Source of the DNA: a virus
IMG/VR virus record: IMGVR_UViG_3300025096_000006
Coordinates: 44,231-108,230 of that record
DNA length: 64,000 nt
Reading direction: 5' to 3' (one strand)
Shown: positions 3,313-57,043 of the stretch, in pieces
How positions within the stretch are numbered: position 1 is the stretch's first letter
Layout of the letters: every line of letters begins with the position of its first letter
The notes under the pieces: model-generated
The model's input: the letters and a program-made list of their open reading frames with translations, nothing else
The model's database searches: none
What the model was told of the DNA's origin: nothing
Program-made: the position numbers and the translations under genes

Positions 3313-5646
3313 CTATATGTCTAGTTTTAACTTAAATGTTAAATCTTGATCTTCTTTCTTGAGAATTGGGTTGGATAATGACGCAACACCAATTAAGTTC
3401 TTATTTTCATCATATATTCCAATTTTAGAAATATATACTTGCCTGTTAAAAGAAGCCGAATGCCCCTCAAAGCTAGAGCTAACAATATTTTTTATTCTTA
3501 ATTTAGGATTTTCCTGATATATGACTGACGAAGTTAGCTGCAAGCGATCTTGACCATATTCTATAGAAGTAACATTATTAGAATAATTGGTTTCGCCGCG
3601 ACGAGCATGCGCATGCATGGTCATAACCTGTGTCTCAGTTGTCCCTTCAAAAGATAAATCAAAGGACATAGATATGAATCTAGTGCCAGTGTTAGAGGTG
3701 CCTCCTCCTACTGTGCTTTGGGTTAGACCATCTTCTGCGCCGGCTCCAAAATATTTCCACTTTGGATAATCCCACTCTTCAGTATCTTTAATTAATGGCA
3801 TTGAACCGGTTGCTCCTAGCTGCCAATTGCCAGTCAATAGCAATATTCCTTCTTCATACAAAGCAACACCAGCCACACTACCGGAGCCCGTTTGAGCATC
3901 TGGTCCATCCATGGCTCCAGATACCTGAATAAGCTCTCCATTTTGTTTAAGATCTCTAAGTTCACCTATTAAAGTTCCAGTCACAAACATTTTTAATGAA
4001 AGCGATCCTGGTTTGATTTCCGAACCATAAAAGATAGACGGAATCATTATTGCATTAATTTGTTGGCGATCCTTGTCCCAACCAACATCTGTCCCTCCAT
4101 CTGCATATGCTGCTAAACTTGAACTAACTGCGTAATGCTCACTTCTTGTTCTATAAAGCTCCAATGAGTTTCGAAGCGCATGGTAGTGAGGGTGCACTGC
4201 GGTGCCTTTTGCGCACTCTACAGAAGTATCATCGCGGTATACCGTTTTGGCATCGTGAGCATCGCCATCGTCTTCATCGTGCGTTGGCAAGCGCTGTGCC
4301 GCATAATGTCCGCATTTTCCATCGGTAAAGGTAGAGCTTCCAGTCCAATATTCTCTGCTAATAGAAGCAGACATAGGATAGTTTCCATAAAATATGGTAC
4401 CATCTTCTATGGCGCGCCAGTTATCTAGTTGGCTACCAGTAAAAGCGCTTCTGAATATAGCTCTATCGCTGCTTTTTACTAGAAAAGGATAAATAAATTC
4501 ATTTGTAGTTTCGGCGTTAGCATCGGTAGTAGTAGCACCGGCAAAGGCAGTAGCAGTAATCCCTCCATTAACTCTTATATCCGATAAATTTCCATTTGTG
4601 ATAGCTGCGATCGTAGTATTGCCTGCAATGCCAGGAGTGACTTGAGTAACAGTCAATGTATCATTTGTAGCGGTATGTGTGCTAAGTACGGCAGTCAATT
4701 TTCCGCTGTGCCCGGCAGAACCCTCAATGGCTTCCTTAAACTTAGTCGCAATCTCTCCTTGATCACTGCATGCAGCAATATTAACGCGGATTGTTGTGCC
4801 GCTAACCACGGCACCATTTGCATAAGAGCCGCCATTTTGGAACGCATAAGTTCTTTCCGTTCCATCGCTAGAAGTTAGCGTAATTGAAGGAGGCGAGCCG
4901 TCATCAATACCACCAGAGCCGCCAACTGCATGATTTACAACTCTGATAGTGGCTGTGGAGCCTCCACCGGCGCCTTCAGCGGCTCCTCCAGTAAAAGCAG
5001 TAGCAGTAATGCCGGCATTTACCGTTATATCCGACGTATCACCGTTTGTCACAGCCGCAATTTCGGTGTTGCCAGCAATACCATCTGTTGCCTGAGTTAA
5101 GGTCATTGTATCATTTGTGGCAGTGACCGTACTTAAAACAACAGTAATCTTTCCATTATGCCCAGCGCTGCCTTCAATAGCTTCTTTAAATTTAGCTGCA
5201 ATTTCTCCTTGATCGCTGCATGCAGCAATATTGACACGAATTGTTGTACCGCTAACCACGGCGCCATTTGCATAAGAACCACCATTCTGAAATGCATAGG
5301 TTCTCTCTGTTCCGTCACTAGAAGTTAGTACGATAGAGGGCGGCGAACCATCATCAATACCGCCGGATCCTCCGACTGCATGATTTACAATTTTAATTGT
5401 AGCTGTTGCGCCCCCTGCATCAATATTGGCAGCATGTCGAACATAGCCAGTTCCTTTATCTATATTGTATTCATATAGACTAATATGTCCTGGACCTACA
5501 TTTCTAACATTGTGACTAAAGGCGCCAGACTGTTCAGCTCTCTGGTTGTAGTAAACAGTTCCGTCATAAATGAAAAACTCACTTTTTGGGTGAGCTTTCA
5601 TTGTGTTAATCAGAAGATCGTTTTCTCCAAACTTTTTAATAGACAT
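3313..5646 (-). CDS. virion structural protein (baseplate/fibre-collar-like) with a duplicated 150-aa insert
   Basis: C-terminal YISKIGIYDENKNLIGVASLSNP motif; IKPGS motif shared with the adjacent paralog; location in the tail module. Confidence 0.65.
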   Translation of the reverse strand: MSIKKFGENDLLINTMKAHPKSEFFIYDGTVYYNQRAEQSGAFSHNVRNVGPGHISLYEYNIDKGTGYVRHAANIDAGGATATIKIVNHAVGGSGGIDDGSPPSIVLTSSDGTERTYAFQNGGSYANGAVVSGTTIRVNIAACSDQGEIAAKFKEAIEGSAGHNGKITVVLSTVTATNDTMTLTQATDGIAGNTEIAAVTNGDTSDITVNAGITATAFTGGAAEGAGGGSTATIRVVNHAVGGSGGIDDGSPPSITLTSSDGTERTYAFQNGGSYANGAVVSGTTIRVNIAACSDQGEIATKFKEAIEGSAGHSGKLTAVLSTHTATNDTLTVTQVTPGIAGNTTIAAITNGNLSDIRVNGGITATAFAGATTTDANAETTNEFIYPFLVKSSDRAIFRSAFTGSQLDNWRAIEDGTIFYGNYPMSASISREYWTGSSTFTDGKCGHYAAQRLPTHDEDDGDAHDAKTVYRDDTSVECAKGTAVHPHYHALRNSLELYRTRSEHYAVSSSLAAYADGGTDVGWDKDRQQINAIMIPSIFYGSEIKPGSLSLKMFVTGTLIGELRDLKQNGELIQVSGAMDGPDAQTGSGSVAGVALYEEGILLLTGNWQLGATGSMPLIKDTEEWDYPKWKYFGAGAEDGLTQSTVGGGTSNTGTRFISMSFDLSFEGTTETQVMTMHAHARRGETNYSNNVTSIEYGQDRLQLTSSVIYQENPKLRIKNIVSSSFEGHSASFNRQVYISKIGIYDENKNLIGVASLSNPILKKEDQDLTFKLKLDI
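4534..5415 (-). repeat. intragenic diverged tandem duplication, 450-nt period
   Basis: Two near-identical units (TATI..VNHAVGGSGGIDDGSPPSI.LTSSDGTERTYAFQNGG...ITATAF.G); e.g. tgatttacaa at 4931 and 5381. Confidence 0.95.
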
Positions 5647-5661
5647 AGTTAGTGCATTTTT

Positions 5662-6756
5662 TTAGTAGTCTAATCTAACGCGAATTGTCATATCAACTTC
5701 AGGAGTTTTCTTGAGAGGTTCTGACAATTTCGCAACCGCTAGCAATTCGTTAGCAGCGCTATACAAGCCGACTGTTGTGATATACGATATCGGCGGATCA
5801 GAAGCCACACTTTTAACTCTCATTTTGCTGGCGGACACATATGTTGGATTAGTGCTGTAATTAAATTTATTGTGCGGAACTCTACAGAAATAAATTGTTG
5901 AGTTAATCTCAGTAGTATTCTGAAAAGAAACATTTACAAATCTAGCTCTGATGGCATCGCAGTTACCGGAAATAGAAGAGCCGGTAAATGAAGCGGATAC
6001 GCCATCAAGCTGTTTTCCATTGGTGGCGAGACTGCCACTAACAAACCTGGGGTTTCCATCCCATATTGACGAAGTAAGCGCCACCACACCAGCTTCATAA
6101 AAGATCACGCCATAACCTGTGCCATCTTTTGCAACATCGTTATATAAGACAGCCATCTTGCCGCCTTGAGTAGCAAGTGTTCCTTCTCCAGAAACAGTTC
6201 CGGACGGATCTGATAAGACAATCTTGCTTCCATTGGGGTATGCTGCGCCGGCATCACTATCAGAATTAGAGATCGGCCAAGAACCAGAGAACATCGTAAG
6301 ACTAAACGATCCAGGTTTGATCTGGTCTTTGTAAAGCAGACGACTAAAATTCAAGAAAACGCACGAATCCATAGATCCGGTGCCATCTAGTTTAAGATCG
6401 CTTTCAAATTTTCTAATTACACCAGAGCCGGTAACTCCAAGAAGCACCAAAGCTTCTTGATCGTACATATTTCGTTTCTTTGCATTTTGTGTGCTACTAG
6501 AAGCCGAAAAAGCTGAATCAACAGAATACCCAATAGATATATCAAGGATATGGTTTGCAGATGAGCTTAGATACGGATAGTCGTACACTGACTGAAACAT
6601 TCCGTGTGAATAATCCTTAATATTGAAGGACGTACCATCTGGACTATCATATGTTCCAGACACAATCGTACCGCTTAGAGGCAGAGACTCATGAAGTAAA
6701 GTTTTTGTAGTTGTAACATCCGTGCTAGGATTTAAAGGTTCATAATTTCGTGGCAT
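5662..6756 (-). CDS. virion structural protein (baseplate/fibre-collar-like), paralog of the 777-aa protein
   Basis: IKPGSFSL and C-terminal YITTVGLY..NELLAVAKLSEPLKK..RVRLDY motifs. Confidence 0.65.
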   Translation of the reverse strand: MPRNYEPLNPSTDVTTTKTLLHESLPLSGTIVSGTYDSPDGTSFNIKDYSHGMFQSVYDYPYLSSSANHILDISIGYSVDSAFSASSSTQNAKKRNMYDQEALVLLGVTGSGVIRKFESDLKLDGTGSMDSCVFLNFSRLLYKDQIKPGSFSLTMFSGSWPISNSDSDAGAAYPNGSKIVLSDPSGTVSGEGTLATQGGKMAVLYNDVAKDGTGYGVIFYEAGVVALTSSIWDGNPRFVSGSLATNGKQLDGVSASFTGSSISGNCDAIRARFVNVSFQNTTEINSTIYFCRVPHNKFNYSTNPTYVSASKMRVKSVASDPPISYITTVGLYSAANELLAVAKLSEPLKKTPEVDMTIRVRLDY

Positions 6757-6778
6757 TTATTTTCTCCATGTCCATAAT

Positions 6779-40060: not shown

Positions 40061-40348
40061 TTATTTCTCCTGAATTAAATCAAATAAATTATTTTTATCT
40101 TCTTCGGAAAGCTCAACTGAATTTGATTGACCTTTTTGGCGAAGTCCTATTAATTTAACTAGTTGTTCATTAGATCTTTGAAGAGTCTCTATATGTTTGG
40201 CAGCAACTGGACTTAGGTACTTATTTTGTTCAGCATCTGTGGCTATTTGGTTGGCGATTTCATTTAAAAATTCACGAGCTACTTTTCTATCGCTACGTAT
40301 ATTGCCGAGCGCCTCTTCAATTAAAGATTCTAAGTCTTTTTTGCTCAT
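40061..40348 (-). CDS. helical hypothetical protein
   Basis: Start revised to ATG 40348 (ATGA overlap with the sigma gene stop). Confidence 0.6.
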   Translation of the reverse strand: MSKKDLESLIEEALGNIRSDRKVAREFLNEIANQIATDAEQNKYLSPVAAKHIETLQRSNEQLVKLIGLRQKGQSNSVELSEEDKNNLFDLIQEK

Positions 40349-43826: not shown

Positions 43827-44938
43827 TATTCTCTACTCCTATATTCAAAAATATCACCATACATTTCTTTTACCTGCTCAATTACCGAATCTCTTTCTTT
43901 TATAATAACTCTGTATCCTGCGTCTGCTAAACTTTTAGCAAATAAAAGCTGTTGGGATTCAACAAGCATAGTAGATTGTGGCTTGTATGAGATATAATCA
44001 AATTCTACTGCATCGGCAACAGAATTGTTTAGTTTAAATAATTGTACCTGATATTCGAGATGTTGTTCATTACTTTTATCTGAAGCCTTGCTTATGAGCG
44101 CATTTACACCAATATCATTTGCGTAAATAGCCAAAGCCCTGTTATCTCTTGGAAAACATGGTCCGCCATATCCATAACCATAGCCTAAATATTTTGAACC
44201 AATTCTAGAATCAGAACCAATCGCAGACAGTACCTTGTGCGGATCTCCACCAACAAAAGAAACTATATCGCCAATCATATTTGCAAAAGAAATCTTTGTG
44301 GTTAAAAAACAATTTAAACTTATTTTTGCTATTTCTGCTTCTATTCTAGACATCCTGTGAATTTTTGGCTCGTTAGAGGTCATCTTTTCATACATCTGCT
44401 GCAAAATATCTCCACACGCAGTAGAGCCTTCACCAATGAGCACTAAATTTGGATTAGCTTGGTCTTTTAATATTGTTCCTTGAGCTATAAATTCTGGGTT
44501 ATAGCTGACTGTAAAGTTGTACTTATATTCTTCAAGAACTTGTTGTAGGTGATCACAATATCCCGGCATTGTTGTAGAGCAGATAACAAGATCTTTATTT
44601 TCCTCCATGCCAAGGTTATAACTAATCATAGTATTGATAACAAAATCAATTTGCGAATGATCGTATCTACCATTTTGCAGCGATGGAGTTGCTACGACTA
44701 TAAATAATATATCAGAAAACTCAACTGCTTTACGCAAATCAGTAGTTGCTCTAAAATTTTTAGATTGCTGTAAGTAATTTTCTACGTTTTCTTCGTCGCT
44801 CTTAAAAGTTTTATTGTTAATTTGTTCAACGTAATCTGGAAACAGATCTACTCCTAGTACATCATAGCCGGCCCTTTCTAAAGTTAATGCAAAACAAAGT
44901 CCAAGTTTTCCAATGCCAATAACAGATACTTTTTTCAT
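43826..44938 (-). CDS. ugd: UDP-glucose/GDP-mannose dehydrogenase family protein
   Basis: GIGKLG, VATPS, YNPEFIAQG and GYGGPCFPRD; shortened C-terminal domain. Confidence 0.88.
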   Translation of the reverse strand: MKKVSVIGIGKLGLCFALTLERAGYDVLGVDLFPDYVEQINNKTFKSDEENVENYLQQSKNFRATTDLRKAVEFSDILFIVVATPSLQNGRYDHSQIDFVINTMISYNLGMEENKDLVICSTTMPGYCDHLQQVLEEYKYNFTVSYNPEFIAQGTILKDQANPNLVLIGEGSTACGDILQQMYEKMTSNEPKIHRMSRIEAEIAKISLNCFLTTKISFANMIGDIVSFVGGDPHKVLSAIGSDSRIGSKYLGYGYGYGGPCFPRDNRALAIYANDIGVNALISKASDKSNEQHLEYQVQLFKLNNSVADAVEFDYISYKPQSTMLVESQQLLFAKSLADAGYRVIIKERDSVIEQVKEMYGDIFEYRSRE

Positions 44939-44972
44939 TTTTTACTCCCTAATATAATATTTCTAAACTCTT

Positions 44973-45848
44973 TCATACTATCTTCCAGTCATTTGGATAA
45001 AATCCATATTTAACTCTTCCATCATCAGGTACTGTATAATTTTTAGGAGCGATGACAATCTTATTTGGATTTTCATTAAGAAACGCAGCCCACCATCCAA
45101 AAGAAGTCATATGTGTTGTAAGGTTGTGATCGCAATTTTTCATTATAGCAAAGTCTTGTATATCTGAATTTCCTTCGCAAAATACAAATCTATCGCCATC
45201 TAAATTATTTTTACACCAATCAATATCTGATTGATTATGGCTCATTCCTTTTCTAGTTCCGCCAGAAAAAACCAAAAATTTATATTTTTTATCATTAAAA
45301 TTCTCCATGGCTTTAAAAAAATACTGACCAAAGATGCTGTCTCTAGACAATGTATCTTCTCTACCATAGTAATTGCTATATTCAGATGATGTTCCATCGG
45401 TATTATCGCCTCTTCTAAAATGTAAGCTTACTATTTCTTCATTTCCTGATTTAATATCGCTAATATATTTTTCTGCATATTCTTTTAAAGAATCATTAAG
45501 TCTAAAATCAGCACGTATTTCTTTCTCGTATTTAGAAAAATATTGATAATTCTGAAAAAAGCCGTACAAATCAGTATTATCTGATACTTCAAATACATTC
45601 TTGTGAAAAAGCGTATGGTCAGATTCAATATATCTGTTTGCTATTTTATAGTAATCTTTATGATCTAAAAAATCACACTCAATACTAAATTTATTTAACA
45701 AACATTGTTGGTTGTGCCAGACAACCCCATCAAAATTTGGTATTTTTAGCTCATATCCCGTTTCAAGAGATACCGCGCGAACAACTGCATATTGAAACAA
45801 TTGATTTCCCAATCTTCCTAGTTTTCCCAGCTGGGTGAACGTAATCAT
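44973..45848 (-). CDS. GT11 (alpha-1,2-fucosyltransferase family) glycosyltransferase
   Basis: GRLGNQLFQYA, HFRRGD and SFGWWAAFL motifs. Confidence 0.88.
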   Translation of the reverse strand: MITFTQLGKLGRLGNQLFQYAVVRAVSLETGYELKIPNFDGVVWHNQQCLLNKFSIECDFLDHKDYYKIANRYIESDHTLFHKNVFEVSDNTDLYGFFQNYQYFSKYEKEIRADFRLNDSLKEYAEKYISDIKSGNEEIVSLHFRRGDNTDGTSSEYSNYYGREDTLSRDSIFGQYFFKAMENFNDKKYKFLVFSGGTRKGMSHNQSDIDWCKNNLDGDRFVFCEGNSDIQDFAIMKNCDHNLTTHMTSFGWWAAFLNENPNKIVIAPKNYTVPDDGRVKYGFYPNDWKIV

Positions 45849-46459
45849 TTTGCCATCTCCACATCTTTAAACAAATCAAATTCTCTCAAATCTCTATAAA
45901 ACGGCTCTTCTGGAATATCTTCCATATAATCTGGATAATTCTGCATAAGCATTAATCCTCTGGCTGCTTGCTCAGGGCTCATATATGCATTCCAGCCATT
46001 AATGCTAATATTATCTTCGTGATACATTACTTCGCCGCGGCCTTCATAGCGACCTTTTCTAAACCACTTAGCAGCCTCTTCATTGTCAGTTAAAATCATA
46101 CCCCCCTTACCTATCTTCAAATGTTTTTTGATGTGGAAGGAAAGGCACATAAAGCTTCCTGGGATATACATATTGCTTGTTAGGCGCTTGGCTGCGTCAT
46201 AAATCGGATAAGGCTCAAGTTGATAGACGCCTTTCCATCTATAATCGCGAAACTTAAGTGTTCCGCCGGCATGCAAAATTGATTGTGGAACCGACAAGTA
46301 TGTGCGTGCTGGAATTATAACTTCATCAACATTTAGATATTGACAACACAACAATAATGCATCTGTGCAATTATCAGTCGACACAGCATACTTTGAGCCG
46401 CAATAATCGGCTACAGTCTCTTCGAACATTTTTACGATTTTATATGGGTTATGTCTCAT
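45845..46459 (-). CDS. DegT/DnrJ/EryC1/StrS-family sugar aminotransferase, unusually short
   Basis: FE..VA.Y.G.KYAV..NCT.AL, EVIIPA.TY, DAA and SFHIKKHL.IGKGGMILTD (PLP Lys). Confidence 0.8.
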   Translation of the reverse strand: MRHNPYKIVKMFEETVADYCGSKYAVSTDNCTDALLLCCQYLNVDEVIIPARTYLSVPQSILHAGGTLKFRDYRWKGVYQLEPYPIYDAAKRLTSNMYIPGSFMCLSFHIKKHLKIGKGGMILTDNEEAAKWFRKGRYEGRGEVMYHEDNISINGWNAYMSPEQAARGLMLMQNYPDYMEDIPEEPFYRDLREFDLFKDVEMAK

Positions 46460-47408
46460 TAATATTCTCTTTAAAATAATCCATTGTAAAAGGATTCATA
46501 ATTCTTTCAAAATTATCATAATAATATGCGTATGTAAGCATTTCGGGCTCTGCGGGAAGCTCCTGCATATGAATTACCTCATTATGTTCAAAAGCTATTA
46601 TTCTTTTTTTTGAAATTATTGTAACGCATGCGTTGGGAATTGAAAATACAGCATTTATTGGGGACCGACCGGTCATTGCTCTAAGATATGGCAGCAATTT
46701 CCATGCATCTCCATTGTATCCAATCATATCTGTTTCAGGTAATCTGGAATCATGATGATTCCATGAGATTTCATGCCAGTGGAGGCGTTTTTTTTCAGCT
46801 GGCGATATCACTGTATTTAAGATTTTTTTGTACTCTTCTTCTAAAACTAATTGTGACGGCTCCCAACGTGGACAAGTATCATGTAAAATTATAAACCCAT
46901 CATCATTTAAAATTTTCAAACTTTCAATAACCTCATTCCATATAAACTCAGATAAATGCATGCCATCAATAAAAATAATATCATATTTTTGGTTAAAAAA
47001 TCTTTTATTCATTACAAAAAATAATTGCGATGTCATTTTATGTGTAATATTTTTACAAGCGCCATATGGGTCAACGCCATGTTTTAAACTAACATTTTCA
47101 ACATTATTAAATGTATTTCCTTGATCCACTCCAATTTCCAAATAATGTATATTTTTTTTACCACTGGTTAAAATATTTATAACATCGACTGGTTCGTAAT
47201 CATAATGACATCCATGAGAAATAAAAGCCGGACCAGTTAATAAAGCTTCATCTAGGTGAGCTGGTATGGGAATCTCAGGGTCTGGAGTTCCCTGGTTTTT
47301 ACTAAAAACAAACCCCGGAAGGTGTGGCGGTAAATTAGGATTTTTAAATGGCGTTGGGTAAAACGCATATTTAAGTTTAAATTCTAAGTTTGGTTCATTT
47401 TCATTCAT
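46449..47408 (-). CDS. class I SAM-dependent methyltransferase (Methyltransf_24-like)
   Basis: YLEIGV..G, YDIIFIDGMH and ILHD motifs. Confidence 0.8.
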   Translation of the reverse strand: MNENEPNLEFKLKYAFYPTPFKNPNLPPHLPGFVFSKNQGTPDPEIPIPAHLDEALLTGPAFISHGCHYDYEPVDVINILTSGKKNIHYLEIGVDQGNTFNNVENVSLKHGVDPYGACKNITHKMTSQLFFVMNKRFFNQKYDIIFIDGMHLSEFIWNEVIESLKILNDDGFIILHDTCPRWEPSQLVLEEEYKKILNTVISPAEKKRLHWHEISWNHHDSRLPETDMIGYNGDAWKLLPYLRAMTGRSPINAVFSIPNACVTIISKKRIIAFEHNEVIHMQELPAEPEMLTYAYYYDNFERIMNPFTMDYFKENINET

Positions 47409-48155
47409 TTAATAAATTTTCTCCAGATCTGAATGTATGCCGGTACTTGGATCAAAATGCTTAATTGTATTTTCAGATACAAGCTTATAACTTTTATTAA
47501 CACAAACCATACTGGATTCGCTTAATGGATATCGCCATACGTGCATATATTGACCAATATGTTTTTGTAAATTTTTTATTGCGTTTGAATCGCTAGGATG
47601 ATTATGAATTTCCATCGCAATTATTCCAATATTAGACAAATCTTTTCCATTCATAAATGAATATTCCGAGCCTTCTATATCCATCTTCATATAATCAATA
47701 TAATCATAGTCAATAAGTTTAAAAATATCTTCTAATGAGATGGTTAAACAATTATCATATTCTAAAAGATTCATATCATTTGTTTCAAGCAAAGAGTTGT
47801 CTCCGGGATGCCCACTTTTTGATTTATAAATTTTTGTTATTTGCCCAGTTTTATCTGAGGCTGCTAACCTATTAATGATTACATTTTCAAGCCCAAGCGC
47901 GCTTATTTTATGACTAGCAATTGAAGATAAAAAGGGTACCGGCTCAAAAGCATGCACATGTTTAAAAGATTTGGCTACTTTTATAGAAAACAATCCTATA
48001 TTTGCACCAAGATCTACGGCTACATTTCTTTTAAAGTCAGGAATCAAGTTTTCTATATTGTCAATAGGATATGAATCATTAACCTCTATAGAAAGTTTGT
48101 CTATCCATTTTTTAATAGATTCTTGAGTGTTATATAGATCTTTATAAGATATCAC
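47409..48155 (-). CDS. FkbM-family methyltransferase
   Basis: VDLGANIG.FS, AFEP and KMDIEGSEY motifs. Confidence 0.85.
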   Translation of the reverse strand: MISYKDLYNTQESIKKWIDKLSIEVNDSYPIDNIENLIPDFKRNVAVDLGANIGLFSIKVAKSFKHVHAFEPVPFLSSIASHKISALGLENVIINRLAASDKTGQITKIYKSKSGHPGDNSLLETNDMNLLEYDNCLTISLEDIFKLIDYDYIDYMKMDIEGSEYSFMNGKDLSNIGIIAMEIHNHPSDSNAIKNLQKHIGQYMHVWRYPLSESSMVCVNKSYKLVSENTIKHFDPSTGIHSDLEKIY

Positions 48156-49500
48156 TTTGGATAACCTTTTTTATGTTTAAATCGTAATCTTGAATAAGTT
48201 CACTGATAACAGTGTCCCACTTCTTAGTAATTCTATCAAAGTTGTGGTGTTTTTCAACACCAGCAGGGCATTTTTTTGAAATTTCTTCAAGATTGGAACT
48301 TCTTAATAGTTCTAAGGCGCGGTCTGCCATCTCTACAGTATTGATTCCATTTATAATGTATCCATTTTCTCCATTAGTAATAATATCTAATGCTACCGAT
48401 CTATCAAATGCAACTACTGGACACTCATTGCGCATGCTTTCAGATACCATCATTGGACCAGCATCGGATATTGTTGTACATAAAGCAATATCAGACATTT
48501 TGTAAATCTGGGCCATACCCTGACGACTTTGTACATAGTCTGTTCTTATTGTATTAAAGCGCTGGGTGTTCTGTAGTGGGATTGGTGGACGAGGGCCTAC
48601 ATTTAAAACAGCTATATTCTTTTTTTCTTCTGTGGTGCACCGGTGCCAGATATGATTTAACGCTTCATTGGCAAGATACAATCCCTTTCTAAGGTTATGG
48701 GGTTGCGTGGTTCCCCATAAAATTATTTTTAAATCAGTAGGGAACCCGTACTGCTCTCTTAATTCTTGTTTTGAAGAAGAACAATATGGAATATCGTTTG
48801 GAATTGGAAGTAATTTTGTTTTTTTATCTTTAAATAATGAACTATTTTTTACAATAGATAAACTAAAATTAGAAACTCCAGCAACTATTATTGGCAAGTC
48901 AGACAAATACTTTTTCTTTGCTTCAAAAATTTGTCTTGATTTATCATTTTCAATGTTGCTATTTAACTGTGGGCAATTACCGCAATTTTTAATATATCCA
49001 TCGCATGCAATATTTCTAGGATCTAAATACATTTCTTTTGGTAACTTAATGCTTCCATCTAAAAACCAAGAATTTCCACTATATGTACCGTCTGGATGAC
49101 GCGGATCATATTTAACCTTAACCAAGTCTGGAGCAGCTGGGTAAGCACACCCGCCAGATAGAAAATCATGAGTCATTAATACTCTAATAATGTTGCATTT
49201 GTGTTTGTTATAAATTGCTTTTATTTGTTCTGGAGTGTAGTCTTCTCCATACATAATTAATACTTTATGATTTGGCAACTCGTTAGCAATCTGTTCTGGA
49301 CTTTTATTTCTTATATCAAGTATAAAAGTCTTATCATCTTTAAATGATTTACCCTGATGAATAACCATGTGCGAATCATGATTTAGATTTCTCAAAGCAT
49401 TAAAAACAATATAATTTCCACTTTCATGCGTGCGATCGTATGCATCGTAACCTGCAACATGCAGCACATCTGTTTTTTCTGGTATATTATTAATTGTCAT
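48142..49500 (-). CDS. GT4 glycosyltransferase (WcaC-like)
   Basis: THD..GGC.YP, CGNCPQL, RKG and ESM...PVVAF motifs. Confidence 0.8.
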   Translation of the reverse strand: MTINNIPEKTDVLHVAGYDAYDRTHESGNYIVFNALRNLNHDSHMVIHQGKSFKDDKTFILDIRNKSPEQIANELPNHKVLIMYGEDYTPEQIKAIYNKHKCNIIRVLMTHDFLSGGCAYPAAPDLVKVKYDPRHPDGTYSGNSWFLDGSIKLPKEMYLDPRNIACDGYIKNCGNCPQLNSNIENDKSRQIFEAKKKYLSDLPIIVAGVSNFSLSIVKNSSLFKDKKTKLLPIPNDIPYCSSSKQELREQYGFPTDLKIILWGTTQPHNLRKGLYLANEALNHIWHRCTTEEKKNIAVLNVGPRPPIPLQNTQRFNTIRTDYVQSRQGMAQIYKMSDIALCTTISDAGPMMVSESMRNECPVVAFDRSVALDIITNGENGYIINGINTVEMADRALELLRSSNLEEISKKCPAGVEKHHNFDRITKKWDTVISELIQDYDLNIKKVIQSDIL

Positions 49501-50378
49501 CAGGCAAATCTTGTTCTGAATTTTCTAAGCGGCAACAGTTCTTCTTTAGTTTCATTATCAAGTAAAGAAGTGACTTTTATCAATCCAGTTCCGCAAATTA
49601 CAATAGGAAAAATTCCTTCTTTATATAAAACTTTTCCGGGAGTTCTATTTTCAATTTTTTGATCTTTTACAATTTCAACTTCTGGCAGTCTTGCAAGCCG
49701 ATTATTTACTAATGAACTTGCATTATTATAAGGAAATCCTAAAGAATCTACAAATCTTTTTATATAACTTGAGCTTTTGGACCAATCAATTCTGTAATCT
49801 TCGCCATCTCTCCAAACACTATAAGTGGCATCCTCATCATTTTGAGGGATGCCTTTTATAGGTTTATTGTTTTGAATATTGTTTACAATATTACTTACTA
49901 ATTGTACATAACATTGTGCTATTTTGTCAATAGCTTTTTGTAATTTTATTGGATATTTTATCTCGATGGGCTTTTGATCAATAATATCTCCGCAATCAAA
50001 TTTTTCAGAAGCAAATAAAGCAGTAACTCCTATAATTTTTTCTTCATTAAGTAAACAAGAGACCAAGGGATTAAAGCCTCTATATTTTGGCAACAGCGAA
50101 TCATGAAAAATTATAACCTTCACGTCTTCTAAGAACAGTAGCCATCTCCAAGCAATAGCAAAAGCATATTTCGTCTGTATAGAGTACTCTTGTTTTCTGT
50201 TAAAAAACGGTATTTCATTGTCAATACATAGTTGTTTTATCTCGTCATAATAGTCTTCTTGAATACTTTTGTCTTCTGCAGATACAACTGTTCCAATTAG
50301 ATTCTTATGTTTTTGAATCATAAATTTTAATACTTCGCAGCCCTTTTGTCCCATGATAAGAAAAGAAATTTTATTCAT
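49500..50378 (-). CDS. sugar N-formyltransferase (Fmt-like)
   Basis: FHDSLLPKYRG.NP, GVT, DCGDII and YRIDWS motifs. Confidence 0.85.
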   Translation of the reverse strand: MNKISFLIMGQKGCEVLKFMIQKHKNLIGTVVSAEDKSIQEDYYDEIKQLCIDNEIPFFNRKQEYSIQTKYAFAIAWRWLLFLEDVKVIIFHDSLLPKYRGFNPLVSCLLNEEKIIGVTALFASEKFDCGDIIDQKPIEIKYPIKLQKAIDKIAQCYVQLVSNIVNNIQNNKPIKGIPQNDEDATYSVWRDGEDYRIDWSKSSSYIKRFVDSLGFPYNNASSLVNNRLARLPEVEIVKDQKIENRTPGKVLYKEGIFPIVICGTGLIKVTSLLDNETKEELLPLRKFRTRFA

Positions 50379-50769
50379 ACTGTTTCTCTAGCAAATAAAA
50401 CTTTTTCTTAAATCCACATTTTTCAAATAGTTTTAGGCTAGCCTCGTTATCTATCTTAACTTTGGCGTGTGCAAAAGGATTTATCTTAGTTATTTCAGTA
50501 ATCATAAAAGCTCCAACACCTTTACCTTGGAAATCGGGATGTGTGGCCACACGAATATCGTTATCTATAACTCCTACATAACCGACAGGTGTTTCATCTA
50601 TAAGACAAACCCAATAATCATTATTATGCTTAAGCATGTATCTTGCTTGTTCTATTGGATCTATTTCTTGTTGATTTACAAATCCTTGACGAACTCCATC
50701 CATATTTCTTAATTTTCTAATAAATTCCCAGTATTGAGGATCATTTTTTACGAGAGTTGGCTTTACCAT
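50371..50769 (-). CDS. GNAT acetyltransferase (PseH-like)
   Basis: HPDFQGKGVG and NEASLKLFEKCGF motifs. Confidence 0.85.
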   Translation of the reverse strand: MVKPTLVKNDPQYWEFIRKLRNMDGVRQGFVNQQEIDPIEQARYMLKHNNDYWVCLIDETPVGYVGVIDNDIRVATHPDFQGKGVGAFMITEITKINPFAHAKVKIDNEASLKLFEKCGFKKKFYLLEKQYE

Positions 50770-51557
50770 TCGTCCACCTGAGAACCAAAATGATTACCAC
50801 TGTTAAGCCAATAATGTGTAAGATAGCCTCTGGTATATTTCCATCCTTCTAGATTAAGGAGAGGATTAAGGCAGCTGCCAATATCCATATAAGTATTGCT
50901 TGGTGCCTCTTTATAATTTTCATAAATTACAAAGTTACTTAATGACGCTGCAGAACACAAAATCAAATGATCATTAACGTTATTTTTTGCAATATATTCT
51001 TTTACTTCTTCAACAATGTGATAATCATTCACCATGCAATCAGAGCCTATTTCAAAGGCTTTTTTTACTTTAAACGGAAGGCGAGATATATCGGCTAATT
51101 TATTAACAACATATATTATTTCTCTATCAACGAACAGAGGAACCATTTCTTCTATGAATCTACGATAATTTGCATTAATTAAAAGATTTGAAAAAGTAAG
51201 ATTTTCCTCTTCTTCTCCCAACAAGTTAATCTGCCAATCAAAGTTCTGTCTTCCTAAGTGTGGATCTGTTCCAGTACAAATACCTTTAAAATAATTGTGT
51301 TGCTTGTGTTTAAAGCACTCTATTACTTTCTGTCTGTAAAATTGATGCTTTTCGGGTATGAATTGCTTCTGCTCTTCTTCAGTATAAATATTAGGACCTT
51401 TTATATCGCCCGTTACATAGTGATTATCTGCAAGTATAATAGTTTTATTCTGCATGATGAAAAGTTCACCATCAGAAAATCGAGAAAATGCAAAATTTTC
51501 TTTTCTTTTTAGCATTGCTAATATTTTATCAAATTCTTCTTTGAAATTTTTAGACAT
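50763..51557 (-). CDS. GT-D fold (DUF1792-like) glycosyltransferase
   Basis: FSRFSDGE near the N-terminus and DIGS near the C-terminus, matching the R.GDGE...DIG pattern. Confidence 0.55.
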   Translation of the reverse strand: MSKNFKEEFDKILAMLKRKENFAFSRFSDGELFIMQNKTIILADNHYVTGDIKGPNIYTEEEQKQFIPEKHQFYRQKVIECFKHKQHNYFKGICTGTDPHLGRQNFDWQINLLGEEEENLTFSNLLINANYRRFIEEMVPLFVDREIIYVVNKLADISRLPFKVKKAFEIGSDCMVNDYHIVEEVKEYIAKNNVNDHLILCSAASLSNFVIYENYKEAPSNTYMDIGSCLNPLLNLEGWKYTRGYLTHYWLNSGNHFGSQVDEW

Positions 51558-52333
51558 TATTCACTCCATTTTGGATAAGGGCTATCATTTGCTATTTTAA
51601 ACGCTTTTATAAATTTATCAGGCCAATGTTCTTTTACAATGCCATCAATAGGAGTACGAGGAGGAAGATAGACGCATAGATCATTTGCCAAACAATATCT
51701 TAAAATTTCAATCGTCTTATAAGAATCTGTATGCTTAGAGATTCTAATATCCCATTTGGTATTTTCTTTAGCTTCGTAGTCTCCGTTTAAAACTTCCATA
51801 AGCAATTCAACGGTTAAGCTATCTGCTTTGGTGGTAAATTCTTCTTCAGTGGTATTGCTATCGTATGTGAAAATTTCAGTTTTCAAAATATCCCCACCAT
51901 CAACTCGCTCGCCGATGCGCATCATTGAAACGCCCCATACTCCAGAATTTAAAATTCTACCCCACACTAAAGAAGCGCCTCCCTGCACATATGGCAGTAT
52001 AGCACCATGGTTTCCTATTACTTCGAAAGAATTTATTACTTTTTTCGGAATTATCCTAGAGTCTCCTAATGTTACAATTAAGTCAATATTGTTCTTTTTA
52101 CAAAAATTATAACAATTATCCCAATTTTCAGACTTATCTAAAGTAATTTTGTTATCATTACAAAACTCGTCTAGTGAGATAGAGTTGACTTTTGAAGGTA
52201 AATTTTCATCTTTTAGACCAAATACATAGGAAATCTTTTTGTTGTCCAATTCTAAGATACCTTTCATGCCTTCTAGTGTGAGTTTTGTGTTTCCTACTAC
52301 AGCTAGCTTAGTGATAGAATCGATTTTGTCCAT
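51557..52333 (-). CDS. second, divergent formyltransferase-like protein
   Basis: GNHGAILPYVQGGASLVW, WGVS and VDGGDIL motifs. Confidence 0.7.
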   Translation of the reverse strand: MDKIDSITKLAVVGNTKLTLEGMKGILELDNKKISYVFGLKDENLPSKVNSISLDEFCNDNKITLDKSENWDNCYNFCKKNNIDLIVTLGDSRIIPKKVINSFEVIGNHGAILPYVQGGASLVWGRILNSGVWGVSMMRIGERVDGGDILKTEIFTYDSNTTEEEFTTKADSLTVELLMEVLNGDYEAKENTKWDIRISKHTDSYKTIEILRYCLANDLCVYLPPRTPIDGIVKEHWPDKFIKAFKIANDSPYPKWSE

Positions 52334-52857
52334 CTTTTTGCAACCTCATTATATCCTTCGTGTGTGAAATGTACCCCATCGATCAAATGCTCTCCAAGAC
52401 CGCCCATGGAACAAATCATAAAATTTATTTTTTTAGACAAATCGATGATGCATTGATTATATTTATCAATATATTCTCTGTTGAACATGTAATAGGGACT
52501 AAACTTCAGTGCCGGCAAAGTAGCAACAATTGGCACTTTTCCATTAGCCTTAATTGAATTAATTATTTGTCGTAGATTATCTTCATAAATATCAATCGGA
52601 GTAGGTATTTTAGTATCATTAGTTCCGATCATTAACAAACATATGCGAGCGCTGGCGTTTGATTTTAAAATATGCCAGCTTCTTCTTAGTAAATCAGAAC
52701 TAGTTTCTCCATTAATGCCATAATTGTGACAAATATAAAACTCTCCTGTTTTTTCGCTCAAAATTTTACCTAGCTCAGCTGGATAGGATCTTCCATATCT
52801 GTCACGAGCGCCGTATGTTAGTGAATCTCCCAAGCATACAATTTCATTCCAAATCAT
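52303..52857 (-). CDS. SGNH/GDSL hydrolase (O-acetylesterase or transferase-like)
   Basis: GDSLT, NYGINGETS, GTND and DGVH blocks. Confidence 0.88.
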   Translation of the reverse strand: MIWNEIVCLGDSLTYGARDRYGRSYPAELGKILSEKTGEFYICHNYGINGETSSDLLRRSWHILKSNASARICLLMIGTNDTKIPTPIDIYEDNLRQIINSIKANGKVPIVATLPALKFSPYYMFNREYIDKYNQCIIDLSKKINFMICSMGGLGEHLIDGVHFTHEGYNEVAKRWTKSILSLS

Positions 52858-52869
52858 TATAAATTTCCT

Positions 52870-54495
52870 TTAAATTTTTATCTTATTAACAGTATCCCAG
52901 CTGCCATCTAAGCAATTTTTAATACACATGTCTCGTTCTGTAAAAAACTGCGCGTGAGATACTGCTTGATTATTAGATGTGGCTTTAGAATCTACGCCCA
53001 ACTCATATCCGAGCAGAGAGCTGTGTAATTCTTTTTCATCAGGAGGATGTGGCGGGCAATAAGTCTGTATGTTGCCAAATTTTTGCGCAGTATAAGAAAA
53101 ATGCATATCCTCTCCATTATCCCAAGTAGGCGGCATCTCTTGCCATAAATACGGCAACCACTCGCGTTTAAAAAACCATGCATGACCAACATAGTCTACT
53201 CTTTCTATTTCAATATTTTGAGATGGCCATCCATGACGATAATATTGCATTGCTTTATGACCAGTCTGCACATATCCGGCGCCTCCCATAATTCCTTCTT
53301 TGATTTGCATTGAATTTAAACAATTTTGATGCCATTGAGTACCTGGAATGGTATCGTCATCGTAAACGGAAATATACTCGGTATCCGCCAATAAACCAGC
53401 CGCAAACCTTCCGTAAAATTTCCAGTTAAAGTCATTGTGAAATATTCTATCTACACCGAGAGATTCAAAGTCAAAATCCTTATTATCTTCGTGCGCGTTA
53501 ACCCAAAGCCAAATTTGTTTTGGGGGAGCTGTTTGATTTCTTAACGCATCTACTTGCATTTTAAGATTATAGGGTCTACGATATGCATTTAAGATAACAG
53601 TAATATCTGCATTAGAAGTATTTTGAGTTACTTTGTGTTCTTCAAAAACAGCAGATTTAATATCTTCATACACTCTTTGTCTTTGAGAGCGAACAAATTC
53701 AATAAGTTCTTTTCCTTTATATTGTTTAAACCAATCTTCTGAGATGCAACCATTTTTAACTGTGGTTATTAAAAGACAGTCTACCATTCGTGCTTCGATT
53801 AATACTCTATTGAATGTTTCTAATACTTTTGGAAAATACACATAAGTTTTATGAGAAGATAGCTGTTTAATAAATTCTTCATAATCGGGAGAGCCAATTA
53901 GAGTAAATTTTAATGAATTTTCTTTACAATATCGAATACACTCTTGAGTATTTTTTGTGGGATTTGAGCTATTGACAATGGAGTAATCTTCTTGCTTGGT
54001 ATTGTTAATATTTTTTTCTATTATCGCAAGCTGTTTATCCGTCCACAGACTCATACCAAGATTAATTACGTTATTAATATTTAAATTCTTTTCTATTACT
54101 TCTTTGTGTATTTTTGATTGCGCAAAAATAGCTTTTGCATTAGCATAAAAAGCTCTATTAATGATATATTGAGAAGGAGCTAAATAGTCCTCAAACACAG
54201 ACGGATCTCGCGTGCTTAGATACTTATGATCGTGCTCCATTATACAGTAAGAGCCTGGGTGCTTTATTAGTTCTTGTTTTGTTTGTTCACTAAGATTACA
54301 AAAATTTGATATTATAAATTTAAATCCGCAATTTCGATAAAGCTTAATATGCTTGTCAATTATTAAATTAGAATTAAACTTAACAATTTTTATATCATCT
54401 TGTTTGAGAAGAGATATAAGAATATCGTCACAAATTTCTCCACCGCCGGCGACTTGATTGACAAAAAAGTCCGATATAAAAACTATTTTCTTCAT
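52870..54495 (-). CDS. two-domain glycosyltransferase (GT-B-like plus GT-A/GT2-like fusion)
   Basis: N-half GGGE...ETFNRVLIEAR; C-half ITVILNAYRR...YDDDTIPG...GEDMH. Confidence 0.75.
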   Translation of the reverse strand: MKKIVFISDFFVNQVAGGGEICDDILISLLKQDDIKIVKFNSNLIIDKHIKLYRNCGFKFIISNFCNLSEQTKQELIKHPGSYCIMEHDHKYLSTRDPSVFEDYLAPSQYIINRAFYANAKAIFAQSKIHKEVIEKNLNINNVINLGMSLWTDKQLAIIEKNINNTKQEDYSIVNSSNPTKNTQECIRYCKENSLKFTLIGSPDYEEFIKQLSSHKTYVYFPKVLETFNRVLIEARMVDCLLITTVKNGCISEDWFKQYKGKELIEFVRSQRQRVYEDIKSAVFEEHKVTQNTSNADITVILNAYRRPYNLKMQVDALRNQTAPPKQIWLWVNAHEDNKDFDFESLGVDRIFHNDFNWKFYGRFAAGLLADTEYISVYDDDTIPGTQWHQNCLNSMQIKEGIMGGAGYVQTGHKAMQYYRHGWPSQNIEIERVDYVGHAWFFKREWLPYLWQEMPPTWDNGEDMHFSYTAQKFGNIQTYCPPHPPDEKELHSSLLGYELGVDSKATSNNQAVSHAQFFTERDMCIKNCLDGSWDTVNKIKI

Positions 54496-54500
54496 ATTGC

Positions 54501-55760
54501 TTAAAACGATAAAACTGCATCTTTTGAAGATAAAGAGTGTTCTGAATTAATTCCCAGCCCACGACACACAGATTCAACCATTTCGCTATATTGCTTTTCA
54601 GTTGAAAAGTTTTTCTTAACTTTTTCAGAATATTCAACACATCTTTTAGTCGTGTTTTCAGCACTTTTTCCAGTTAAAGATTCGTAACATCTTCTCATTT
54701 GATACCGAACAGATTTTTCTCTTGGAAATGCCCACATAGACTCTTTAATCAAAACTCCATTCCAGACAGCTTCTTGTTGAATAGGCTGTATATCATACGC
54801 AACATTAAAAAACATATCTTCGCCAGTTTCACTATCAACCAAAAAATCTAACTGGCCAGACCAGCCGGTTGTAACAACAGGAAGTCCACTATATATTGCT
54901 TCAAAGGTTGGAAGACCAAATCCTTCTCCGTGAGTTAAAAGCAAAAATGATTTAATTTTAGGATGTACGTATAGAGAGTGCATCTCTTCGTCAGACATGT
55001 CTCCGTGAAGAAGATAAATTTTACACTTATGATCTCCAAGGCTAGAAAGATATGCTTTAAAATGTGCTATTTGCATTTCTCTGTCTGAAATACAATTTCT
55101 AGCAAAGTTAGACTTCAATACTAACCCAACCTCTTCGTCTCTAAACTCTTCGATAAACCATTTAATTGTATTTAAAATGTTTTTTCGAGGACCCATTTGT
55201 GCAACAGTCAAAAAATTAAAATCATATTCTAAGTTTAATGACAATTCTGTATAATTTTCGTATGTTTTTACAGGATAGTTGACAACATCAATTGGCGTCT
55301 CTATGGCTATATCCATCGTTTGTCCGGTAGTATTATTTGTGGCCGCGTACTGAGTCTCTGTAAATCCTCGCTTTGCGTGTTCTGATATGACTATAACTCT
55401 GTCCATATCATTTGCCTTTATCAGCCATTCATGAGCCACTCTTGTGCTTTCAATACCTGCTGTATATCCAATGTTAATAGGAGCAATTGGTTGCCATTCA
55501 TTTGGAATGGTCACTTGTATCGATGCATCAAATTGAAGATTTTGTTGAGCATGTGCGATTGCTTTTTCAACCATTGAATCAATCCATTGACGCTCCTCGT
55601 TATTTTCGCACATCCATGATGTTTTGCCCCATTCTAGAGGGTGTATATAAATGTCAAACAGATCCGATCTAGAGCGCAAAGCTCTAGCCAAAAATCTAGT
55701 TTGCTCTCCATATCCAGAACGAGTCAAAATAGGACCCTTAATTAAAACTTTCTTTTTCAT
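54501..55760 (-). CDS. GT4 glycosyltransferase
   Basis: RSGYG, RKN and HGEGFGLPTFEA..GLPV motifs; start revised to ATG 55760. Confidence 0.85.
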   Translation of the reverse strand: MKKKVLIKGPILTRSGYGEQTRFLARALRSRSDLFDIYIHPLEWGKTSWMCENNEERQWIDSMVEKAIAHAQQNLQFDASIQVTIPNEWQPIAPINIGYTAGIESTRVAHEWLIKANDMDRVIVISEHAKRGFTETQYAATNNTTGQTMDIAIETPIDVVNYPVKTYENYTELSLNLEYDFNFLTVAQMGPRKNILNTIKWFIEEFRDEEVGLVLKSNFARNCISDREMQIAHFKAYLSSLGDHKCKIYLLHGDMSDEEMHSLYVHPKIKSFLLLTHGEGFGLPTFEAIYSGLPVVTTGWSGQLDFLVDSETGEDMFFNVAYDIQPIQQEAVWNGVLIKESMWAFPREKSVRYQMRRCYESLTGKSAENTTKRCVEYSEKVKKNFSTEKQYSEMVESVCRGLGINSEHSLSSKDAVLSF

Positions 55761-57043
55761 GCTACCTCCAACAAGTGCCAACGTTTATAGCCTTTTCTCG
55801 TTTCCCAAGAACCGTGCTTTTCAATAATATTATCTATTGTTTCTATCCAGCTCTTATTGAATTTTTCAAAACTATAATTATTTGCAACATGGTTTAAGCC
55901 CTGTGTCGACATTTTTTTATAAGACTTGTTAGAAACATTTAATGCTTTTTGTAAAGTATTGTGAAAATCTTCACGACTTATTCTATCTTCATAAATATAA
56001 GGCACCTGCAAAGAACCAATGACTGCTTTTGATGCCGGCTGGATTCCCCACCCAAACCAATTAGTACCATCGGTTACTTGCTCTTGCAAGCCTCCGGTCA
56101 TATTAACGATAATAGGAGTTCCACAAGCTAAGGACTCAAGAGTTGCCAGCCCAAATCCTTCAGCATCTGAAATATTTATAGTAAAATCAGCTGCATTATA
56201 CATGTGGGCTAGCTCTGGCGGCGGAATCTTTTTTGTGGACAGCATTACCTGTCCATCATCAACTCCCAAATGTTGAATAAGGTGTGGAAGATCTTGCCCG
56301 TGGGGATCTCGGGCATCTGTGTGCATCAACAACATTGCTTTGTCGTGACCAACCTTATCTAAAAATTCTTTAAACCACCAAACTAATGTGCCGCTCTGCT
56401 TACGGCGAGCATTTCTATTATTCCAGAAAAAGATTTTTTTATTAGCATTCTTAAGATTAATTGATGATTCGTTTACAAGTTTATTTCTAATAATATTAAT
56501 TTTATTTTTGTCTTCTTGGGTCTTGTATTTATAAAAATGTTCTGAATTAACTGCATGTGAAATATGATGAGTGCTAACTTCGGGCACTACATCGTTTAAT
56601 ATATTATAAGTAACTTTAGAAATTGCTACTACCTCGTCTGTTGAACGATAGTATACTCCATTAAATACAGGAGCCGGATAGTTATCCCATACGTGATAAT
56701 AGACCATAGGAACATTTGCTCTAACTTCATTTTCCATTTCCCACAGCCAACCATAAAATCGCGGGTCGGTCATGAACCATAAAAGATCTGGTCTTTCTTT
56801 TTGAAGAATAGAGCGAATCATTTCAGGAGTTCCGTATCCATCAACAGGATAAATAATCCAATCGTTTTCCCATCCTTCAACTTGTTTTGGAGTATAGTCT
56901 TCGTGTTTCATTGCCCCGCCTAAACAGATAAACTTGTATCTTCCTGTTTTCAGTAGGGCTTCAATAAAATATCTTGTTTGTGTGCCAACGCCTGATGGTG
57001 ATAATGGATGGTCAGATAAGACCAAAATTTTCTTTTTTGTCAT
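55757..57043 (-). CDS. GT4 glycosyltransferase
   Basis: SGVG, NRNARRKQ and EGFGLATLESLACGTPII motifs. Confidence 0.88.
   Translation of the reverse strand: MTKKKILVLSDHPLSPSGVGTQTRYFIEALLKTGRYKFICLGGAMKHEDYTPKQVEGWENDWIIYPVDGYGTPEMIRSILQKERPDLLWFMTDPRFYGWLWEMENEVRANVPMVYYHVWDNYPAPVFNGVYYRSTDEVVAISKVTYNILNDVVPEVSTHHISHAVNSEHFYKYKTQEDKNKINIIRNKLVNESSINLKNANKKIFFWNNRNARRKQSGTLVWWFKEFLDKVGHDKAMLLMHTDARDPHGQDLPHLIQHLGVDDGQVMLSTKKIPPPELAHMYNAADFTINISDAEGFGLATLESLACGTPIIVNMTGGLQEQVTDGTNWFGWGIQPASKAVIGSLQVPYIYEDRISREDFHNTLQKALNVSNKSYKKMSTQGLNHVANNYSFEKFNKSWIETIDNIIEKHGSWETRKGYKRWHLLEVA

Follow-up and report, generated by a model that had tools for sequence, protein, structure and literature searches.

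A clade-specific serine/threonine motif in outer tail proteins of aquatic myoviruses that carry a conserved GT4 glycosyltransferase pair

The window analysed here is the last 64 kb of the 108-kb viral contig IMGVR_UViG_3300025096_000006 from IMG/VR (CheckV completeness about 59%). Four of its tail proteins carry the tripeptide [ST][GA]S well above the frequency expected from their composition, and upstream of the tail genes lies a cluster of glycan genes that begins with two glycosyltransferases of family GT4. This tripeptide lies within a longer conserved motif, hydrophobic/aromatic - hydrophobic - [S/T] - [G/A/S] - [S/A/T], of which it is the core. In a single deep clade of aquatic myoviruses, the motif marks fibre, neck-type and outer baseplate proteins. 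The clade consists of an abundant marine lineage together with Flavobacterium phage immuto (vB_FspM_immuto), Microcystis phage Mel-JY01 and Rhodothermus phage RM378. What does the motif do? The reading put forward, which has about an even chance of being correct, is that it represents a structural strand-end turn or an assembly element for which no modification is required. The original prediction on this DNA took the tripeptide to be a sequon read by one of the phage glycosyltransferases, and this possibility, as well as others, is weighed below.

Every gene in the window lies on the minus strand. The motif-rich proteins are a distal tail protein of 777 amino acids (3313..5646), a second distal tail protein of 364 amino acids (5662..6756), a giant baseplate/fibre protein of 3212 amino acids (17164..26802) and an outer baseplate protein of 707 amino acids (26792..28915) encoded directly downstream of the gp6-like gene; none of the four matches a family in Pfam or PHROGs. 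They carry 7, 8 (plus 3 SGT), 31 and 14 motifs, respectively, a recount that bears out the hand counts made originally, and shuffling of the whole proteins gives expectations of 2.9, 1.6, 7.6 and 3.4 (z = 2.4, 5.1, 8.7 and 5.8). The excess stands over composition-preserving shuffles, which had been proposed as a check on it, and this applies also when shuffling is confined to blocks of 20 or 40 residues; local S/G-rich patches are therefore not the cause. Enrichment is weakest in the 777-residue protein (p about 0.01-0.03) and is not independent of that in the 364-residue protein, as the two have a C-terminal domain in common. In the 364-residue protein this multi-copy, clade-specific domain spans residues ~139-364.

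When the four proteins are pooled, TGS ranks first among the 8,000 tripeptides (21 observed vs 3.6 expected, p=3e-10), SAS second and SGS fourth. The motif is directional: TGS occurs 21 times vs 8 for SGT, and SGS 15 times vs 2 for SSG. All six Ser codons are in use at the motif sites, and this diversity rules out a DNA-level word as the driver; selection thus acts on the protein. The sites were described at the outset as dispersed, and this is correct: of 56 spacings between sites, 6 do not exceed 10 residues vs 7.1 expected. Such random-like spacing rules out tandem or clustered repeats in the window proteins. Also upheld is the hydrophobic residue noticed ahead of the motif: position -1 is hydrophobic at 55% of sites vs a background of 31% and charged at 2% vs 20%, and position -2 is aromatic at 27% vs 11%.

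Neighbouring proteins of 2163 and 941 amino acids had been credited with about 0-1 motifs each. The 941-residue protein has none, and the 2163-residue inner tail/baseplate protein (31122..37613) has 2 vs 2.4 expected and is not enriched. The major capsid protein, with 1 vs 1.5 expected, is not enriched either, and non-tail proteins, at ratios of 1.29 and 1.17, show no avoidance of the motif. A mild enrichment (8 vs 3.3) is seen in the tail sheath. A neck/head-tail-adaptor-like protein (PHROG 211; G000:C1:11521-12819 and RM378 p089) is motif-enriched in both G000 and RM378; proteins at G003 180727-181995 and G009 136814-138085 are also enriched and are grouped with it by size only. In the 777-residue protein, all seven motifs lie outside a lineage-specific insert of ~320 amino acids (residues ~65-382, nt ~4501-5454) that is absent from homologs of 436-475 amino acids. 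The insert has no motif vs 4.8 expected at the density of its flanks. Within it is a recent tandem duplication (residues 66-200 vs 216-350, 86.5% identity over 126 amino acids), rightly described before as motif-free.

How far is the excess conserved? Ratios given for families are pooled observed/expected values over homologs from 80+ marine viral contigs. Viral metagenome contigs encode 210 relatives of the 707-residue protein, and all 80 of the homologs retrieved (40-63% identity) are motif-enriched, 5.5x when pooled. The pooled excess is 4.2x in the family of the 3212-residue protein (59 homologs), 5.1x in that of the 364-residue protein and 4.8x in that of the 777-residue protein. The gp6/J-like baseplate wedge protein (28915..30711; PHROG 6/219, E=2e-16) serves as a motif-poor control, and its family is depleted (16 observed vs 61.6 expected, 0.26x, 70 homologs). 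The gp25-like baseplate wedge protein (30726..31094; PHROG 261/43) is without motifs, and its family shows 0 vs 8.1 expected over 64 homologs. Pooled values are 0.87x for the family of the 2163-residue protein and 0.40x for a 348-residue family.

In the 707-residue family the excess is held in about 20 alignment columns, five of which are kept in 60 or more of the 69 sequences, with another seven kept in 30-43; the motif residues S77, T647 and G648 are among the invariant positions. Sporadic motifs outside the conserved columns occur at chance frequency. The 3212-residue family has 27 motif columns at an occupancy of 30% or more. Where a sequence departs from the motif in such a column, position 0 is still Ser or Thr in 60% of cases and otherwise K, D, V, Q, E or N, almost never A or G. 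This rarity of loss to A or G suggests that what selection retains is the hydroxyl group itself, on a residue that is exposed. Positions 1 and 2 accept small residues, G/S/A/C and S/A/T, respectively. Profile-profile comparison of 26 segments with hhalign rules out cryptic common domains or internal repeats, with two exceptions, the C-terminal domain of the 364- and 777-residue proteins and the tandem duplication in the latter; the 3212-residue protein has neither internal repeats nor domains common to other families. As only these two relationships were found, the excess arose in at least three unrelated families.

The nearest cultured relatives, immuto, Mel-JY01 and RM378, were found via the GT4 and gp6-like proteins at ~25-30% identity, as was the uncultured 484-kb LR756508; tblastn with the 707-residue protein and with the repeats of immuto gp101 gave no further cultured relatives. 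In immuto, genes downstream of the gp6-like gene are enriched (gp111, 5 vs 0.8; gp109, 8 vs 2.3; gp103, 7 vs 2.2; gp101, 53 vs 12.1), as is gp056 (13 vs 1.8). Here the motif is found in another form. In gp101, gp102 and gp056 short periodic repeats are built from it, F-[ST]GS-F-[ST]GS-F-xGDGS and [ST]AS-[YF]-Axx, and these fibre/spike repeats stand beside His-box fibre motifs. No tripeptide ranks above SGS (29 vs 3.7, p=9e-17) and TGS in the distal tail proteins of Mel-JY01. In RM378 a 4- to 10-fold enrichment falls in a block at 64.8-78.5 kb, which includes a virion structural protein and the neck/adaptor-like protein. The C-terminal domain of the 364-residue protein is present only in GT4-bearing phages, with five copies in Mel-JY01, two in immuto, two in LR756508 and one in RM378.

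Outside the clade the picture is different. The baseplate and fibre proteins of T4 have 11 motifs vs ~15 expected, with TGS ranking 3393rd, and the composition-matched giant tail proteins of cyanophage S-CREM1 have 40 vs 32, with TGS ranking 1709th. Because these proteins are without excess, the enrichment does not reflect a generic beta-turn preference, and a generic property of tail proteins is ruled out as well. S-CREM1 is absent from the phage records that match the 428-residue GT4, and T4 is not known to have a GT4-family enzyme.

A structural role is suggested by several features of these sequences and models. AlphaFold2 models of the 707-residue protein (predicted local distance difference test, pLDDT, 60.6; a beta-sandwich-like C-terminal half) and the 364-residue protein (pLDDT 58.1) both place the sites at strand ends or in loops; Foldseek gives generic Ig/FN3-like matches only for the former and none for the latter. 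This placement, the fixed columns, the hydrophobic -1 and the aromatic -2 positions together favour a structural turn, as far as models of this kind can suggest it. Favouring it also, at the level of sequence, are the small-residue character of positions 1 and 2, the chance frequency of motifs outside the columns, the periodic repeats of immuto, the lack of avoidance in non-targets, the motif-free duplicated insert and the unenriched phages with a distant GT4 homolog described below. The exposed Ser or Thr would cap the end of a buried beta-strand and lead into a tight Gly/Ser turn. Such a unit would be reused in beta-rich and fibrous modules and in immuto would have become a periodic fibre repeat, with the GT4 pair and its neighbouring glycan genes a real system that is separate from the motif. 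The fixed columns, the hydrophobic -1/-2 positions and the immuto fibre repeats fit a structural turn at least as well as a sequon.

Several findings, however, weigh against this reading. The excess is carried by at least three families with no homology detectable by profile-profile comparison, and a structural habit in unrelated folds of one clade needs a cause specific to that clade; T4 and the composition-matched giant tail proteins of S-CREM1 do not have it. Retention of the position-0 hydroxyl suggests selection for the OH group on an exposed residue. In addition, four deep branches have both the motif and the conserved cytoplasmic GT4 pair.

In order of transcription the window begins with PhoH, followed by a PD-(D/E)XK nuclease (57051..57815; PF12705, E=2e-16), the GT4 pair and 13 more glycan genes. 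Glycosyltransferase A, of 428 amino acids (55757..57043; PF00534, E=7e-13), is a conserved core gene, and B, of 426 amino acids (54501..55781; PF00534, E=3e-6), is a conserved distant paralog (22% identity to A, E=3e-5). Against a PF00534 gathering cut-off of 26.4, A scores 48.8 bits, B 27.1 and a 452-residue protein 46.8. Both members of the pair have an intact EX7E catalytic signature in the C-terminal domain, and it is conserved in the complete relatives G003 and G009 and in immuto. A is 70-73% identical in complete relatives, more conserved than the tail proteins themselves; B is 54-57% identical. Homologs of A are present in immuto, Mel-JY01, LR756508 and RM378, and number at least 7,755 in ocean metagenomes; the best PDB relative is chlorovirus B736L (3oy2, E=1e-8). 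In G009, B is fused to a C-terminal GT-A-like domain of ~220 amino acids (43808-45751, locus L114; 647 amino acids in total), and long forms of B, of 656-693 amino acids, are found in G001, G009 and G010.

Co-occurrence of motif and enzymes across related genomes had been proposed as a check. Of 16 long marine relatives, 13 have the GT4 pair, all three complete genomes among them, and the other three are fragments that end before the slot; among distant relatives, pair and motif excess occur together in immuto, Mel-JY01 and RM378. The expectation is thus borne out as far as it goes: no relative lacking the glycosyltransferases that could contradict it was found, and since all motif-positive cases form one clade, they represent one evolutionary event and not replicated evidence. 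The nuclease, a syntenic upstream partner of the pair across the clade, neighbours it in immuto and Mel-JY01 also, and in RM378 its place is taken by a gene annotated 'similar to DNA polymerase I'. RM378 p012-p014 (L136:8212-11893) consist of an exonuclease-like gene and both GT4 paralogs, p014 being the homolog of B, and are followed directly by ribonucleotide reductase. A UDP-galactopyranose-mutase-like gene of RM378 (p124) lies elsewhere, beside tail-type genes. The Mel-JY01 homolog of the 428-residue enzyme (L128:13441-14932, record 83441-84932) is annotated as two open reading frames in different frames; this represents a frameshift or a sequencing error, and if real would be a natural partial knockout in which the motif excess is retained.

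The 13 remaining glycan genes form a variable island of soluble enzymes (41824..54495), recognized by Pfam and NCBIfam matches, and with the pair they make up the 15-gene cluster of the original prediction, now corroborated at 41824-57043. The island encodes an RmlB-like dehydratase, an SDR, a nucleoside diphosphate (NDP)-sugar dehydrogenase, a GT11, a short DegT aminotransferase, two methyltransferases, a GT4, two formyltransferases, a GNAT, a weakly matched GT-D-like protein, a GDSL esterase and a GT2-like protein. The DegT/PseC-type aminotransferase (45845-46459) has only 204 amino acids vs ~360-380 profile positions; this seems to be a conserved form and not a local truncation, as G003 has a 201-residue homolog (37% identity). 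In comparison with G003 and G009, only the GT4 pair, the nuclease and flanking genes are conserved, and most of the 13 island genes have no homolog. The islands of immuto and Mel-JY01 differ in gene content again, and the RM378 pair has no sugar-synthesis island adjacent to it. From this we infer that the pair is the fixed anchor of a swappable set of soluble enzymes, with which a decorated glycan is made in the cytoplasm.

The baseplate module is directly preceded, on its own strand, by the pair and the island, a layout found also in immuto and Mel-JY01. On the structural side the island is bounded by a conserved 238-residue protein (40345..41061), 82-86% identical in G003 and G009; the label of sigma factor given to it is unconfirmed, as Pfam and PHROGs give no match for it and its best PDB match, RpoS region 2, is not significant (E=0.3). 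A few small genes follow, then an M23-peptidase protein, the 2163-residue protein, the gp25-like and gp6-like proteins, and proteins of 707, 3212, 509, 941, 236, 435, 966, 328, 364 and 777 amino acids. Tail sheath, neck/adaptor-like protein and major capsid protein are encoded on the remainder of the contig.

Do the GT4 enzymes read the motif? A tentative possibility, well short of probable, is that this soluble pair starts a glycan on the position-0 Ser or Thr of Phi-[S/T]-[G/A/S]-[S/A/T] in the cytoplasm, before or during tail assembly, with a strand-loop structural motif as the acceptor, as for the autotransporter heptosyltransferases. The swappable island would then extend and decorate the glycan, and the outer baseplate, fibre and neck proteins would bear a sugar coat that differs from strain to strain. 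Consistent with this are the convergent, clade-specific enrichment in at least three unrelated outer-virion families, its absence from capsid, gp6, gp25, the inner 2163-residue protein and non-structural proteins as well as from T4 and S-CREM1, and the retained hydroxyl. On the enzyme side, the pair is universal wherever its slot can be read and, at 70-73% identity, is conserved above the tail proteins' own level; both members keep EX7E, and the best solved relative of A is a virus-encoded glycosyltransferase, that of a chlorovirus. RM378 retains pair and motif without a sugar-synthesis island beside the pair, the island elsewhere is without flippase, polymerase or other multi-pass membrane protein, and the complete relatives are without a hydroxymethylase above cut-off or a C5-methyltransferase. 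Pairs of glycosyltransferases that glycosylate Ser-rich sites in the cytoplasm are established in bacteria (PMC5796085). The reader among the glycosyltransferases, if there is one, is the conserved GT4 pair, since the variable glycosyltransferases of the cluster are mostly unshared between close relatives and the RM378 pair has no sugar-synthesis genes adjacent to it.

Against an acceptor role, the correlation is that of a single clade in which no natural relative lacking the enzymes was found. The sites are unusually fixed, with hydrophobic flanks, whereas many known O-glycosites lie in flexible low-complexity segments, and non-targets do not avoid the motif. Two unrelated phages, phiPsal1 and TJE1, carry a GT4 homolog in the structural module and show no motif enrichment, though homologs only ~21-22% identical make for a weak test. 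Similarity to known protein O-glycosyltransferases is generic, not specific, as judged by sequence: models of SdgA/SdgB give 21-31 bits, far below a cut-off of 800, and the GtfA structure 4pqg is matched at E=0.0065 only. A degenerate partner of the GtfA/GtfB kind is ruled out, as both GT4s keep EX7E. The literature searched gave no glycoprotein evidence for any clade member. Sequence by itself neither confirms nor refutes the sequon model of the original prediction.

Might the glycan be destined for the host and not for the virion? Modification of the host envelope during infection, with lipopolysaccharide (LPS), capsule or S-layer altered by way of the host's lipid carrier and export machinery, is possible but doubtful as the role of the island; it concerns the island's acceptor only and is compatible with a structural motif. 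In gene content the island resembles an O-antigen locus and is hypervariable from one relative to the next, and host-envelope modification is the standard interpretation in the field for 'cell-wall/LPS' clusters of large marine myoviruses (PMC12801897). The locus has the NDP-sugar/tailoring enzymes and the several glycosyltransferases of an O-antigen or capsule type but not the exporter or priming functions, for which host machinery could substitute. A hydropathy scan at 40-58 kb found no multi-pass membrane protein, and hence the locus has no flippase, polymerase or ligase, nor a membrane priming transferase. The same GT4 pair is kept although the recorded hosts (Bacteroidota, Rhodothermus and cyanobacteria) span three phyla with different envelopes, and in RM378 it is kept with no island adjacent.

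It is distinctly unlikely that the motif is read in trans by a different clade-specific factor, e.g. a chaperone of fibre or baseplate assembly, or serves another Ser/Thr modification such as phosphorylation or acylation, with the glycan locus unrelated. Sites read in trans are typically short linear motifs that, like this one, are enriched convergently and have little extended context, and the position-0 hydroxyl is retained; however, no candidate reader was found, and beside the late module the GT4 pair and the nuclease are the only clade-wide enzymes.

Glycosylation of phage DNA by pair and island, with the linked nuclease degrading unmodified DNA, is a very unlikely account and again concerns the island's acceptor only. 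The conserved nuclease-GT4-GT4 linkage and secondary Pfam matches to GT4-conflict models point in this direction, and phage glycosyltransferases by which DNA is hypermodified with glycans are known (Pyle et al. 2024, as cited in PMC12619734). But the three complete relatives have no thymidylate-synthase (TS)-type hydroxymethylase (PF00303) above cut-off, no C5-cytosine methyltransferase (PF00145) in a search with positive controls and no TET/JBP match (PF12851) in a search without a positive control; this lack of genes for a hydroxymethyl-acceptor precursor weakens DNA glycosylation as the island's role. Hardly credible, finally, is an artefact, be it of composition, of low-complexity runs, of repeats within the proteins or of a word at the DNA level: the window proteins with excess are somewhat S/T/G-rich, but whole-protein and local-block shuffles rule out composition or low complexity as the source, tripeptide ranking, directionality, spacing, codon diversity and the lack of internal repeats all speak against it, and the excess is replicated in 80+ homologs and in cultured relatives.

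What would follow from these readings? Large marine phages carry glycan clusters for which no role is settled (PMC12801897, PMC12619734), and the usual proposals are host-surface or DNA modification. New here is a deep, very abundant clade that combines a conserved GT4 pair, a swappable cytoplasmic island and a conserved, clade-specific Ser/Thr motif in tail proteins. Should the GT4 pair glycosylate the motif, this would be the first phage glycosylation sequon, none being described in the literature searched; it would explain the enigmatic 'cell-wall/LPS' islands of large marine phages and provide a functional account of strain-level glycan diversity on virions. Should the motif be unmodified, a structural signature would have been defined that is new and that characterizes a widespread tail-protein family. 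As three members of the clade are in culture (immuto, Mel-JY01 and RM378), the sequon hypothesis is directly testable by virion glycoproteomics.

Among known systems, the general O-glycosylation of Bacteroidota uses a sequon, D-(S/T)-(A/I/L/V/M/T) (PMC5796085), that is likewise of three residues and Ser/Thr-centred, and Bacteroidota is the host phylum of the nearest cultured relative. The motif described here differs in that the residue before S/T is hydrophobic and is charged at only 2% of sites. In the Bacteroidota system a membrane oligosaccharyltransferase does the work, outside the cytoplasm, whereas the window locus encodes no multi-pass membrane protein and hence no such enzyme.

Similar in gene content are the 'cell-wall/LPS' glycan clusters of unknown acceptor in the marine myoviruses P-SSM2, S-SCSM1 and S-SCSM2R (PMC12801897) and the moraphages, with core gp6, gp25, PhoH, sigma factor, peptidase, four glycosyltransferase orthogroups and predicted Flavobacteriia hosts (PMC12619734). 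The window cluster is like theirs in its glycosyltransferases and NDP-sugar enzymes; no acceptor motif has been proposed for theirs. The lineage as a whole resembles the moraphages, by gene content only, in its core gp6, gp25, PhoH, peptidase and several glycosyltransferase orthogroups, its lack of a recognizable tape measure and its Flavobacterium-infecting cultured relative.

The GtfA/GtfB pair transfers O-linked N-acetylglucosamine (O-GlcNAc) to serine-rich repeat adhesins and to Lactobacillus Acm2 (PMC5796085, PMC6973325). There, as here, two GT-B genes are adjacent. The sites that the adhesin system modifies, in the cytoplasm, are Ser-rich and of S-A-S type; further glycosyltransferases, including GT-D types, elaborate the glycan, and the window island has its weak GT-D-like match. 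GtfB, however, is non-catalytic, whereas both phage GT4s keep EX7E, and the window sites are dispersed and not dipeptide repeats. The similarity is generic.

Virion glycans of the mycobacteriophage Che8 type have been reported on the C-termini of the subunits that make up the capsid and the tail tube (Freeman et al. 2023, as described in PMC12619734 and PMC12801897). As in that system, the window's phage-encoded glycosyltransferases adjoin structural genes and are co-oriented with them, and the glycan would be cytoplasmic and put on virion proteins. In the present clade the capsid is not enriched, and the candidate sites are dispersed, internal and in baseplate/fibre proteins.

The heptosyltransferases TibC and Aah, which act on the autotransporters TibA and AIDA-I, are soluble cytoplasmic enzymes whose acceptor Ser/Thr residues lie in short strand-loop-strand units of repetitive, beta-rich surface proteins. 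The window enzymes are GT4 by Pfam and not homologs of the BAHT family. The window sites may be of a similar kind: in the low-confidence models they are at strand ends, with hydrophobic -1/-2 positions, and in immuto they form repeats. By this analogy the structural and acceptor readings are not exclusive, since in autotransporter heptosylation the structural repeat is itself the acceptor.

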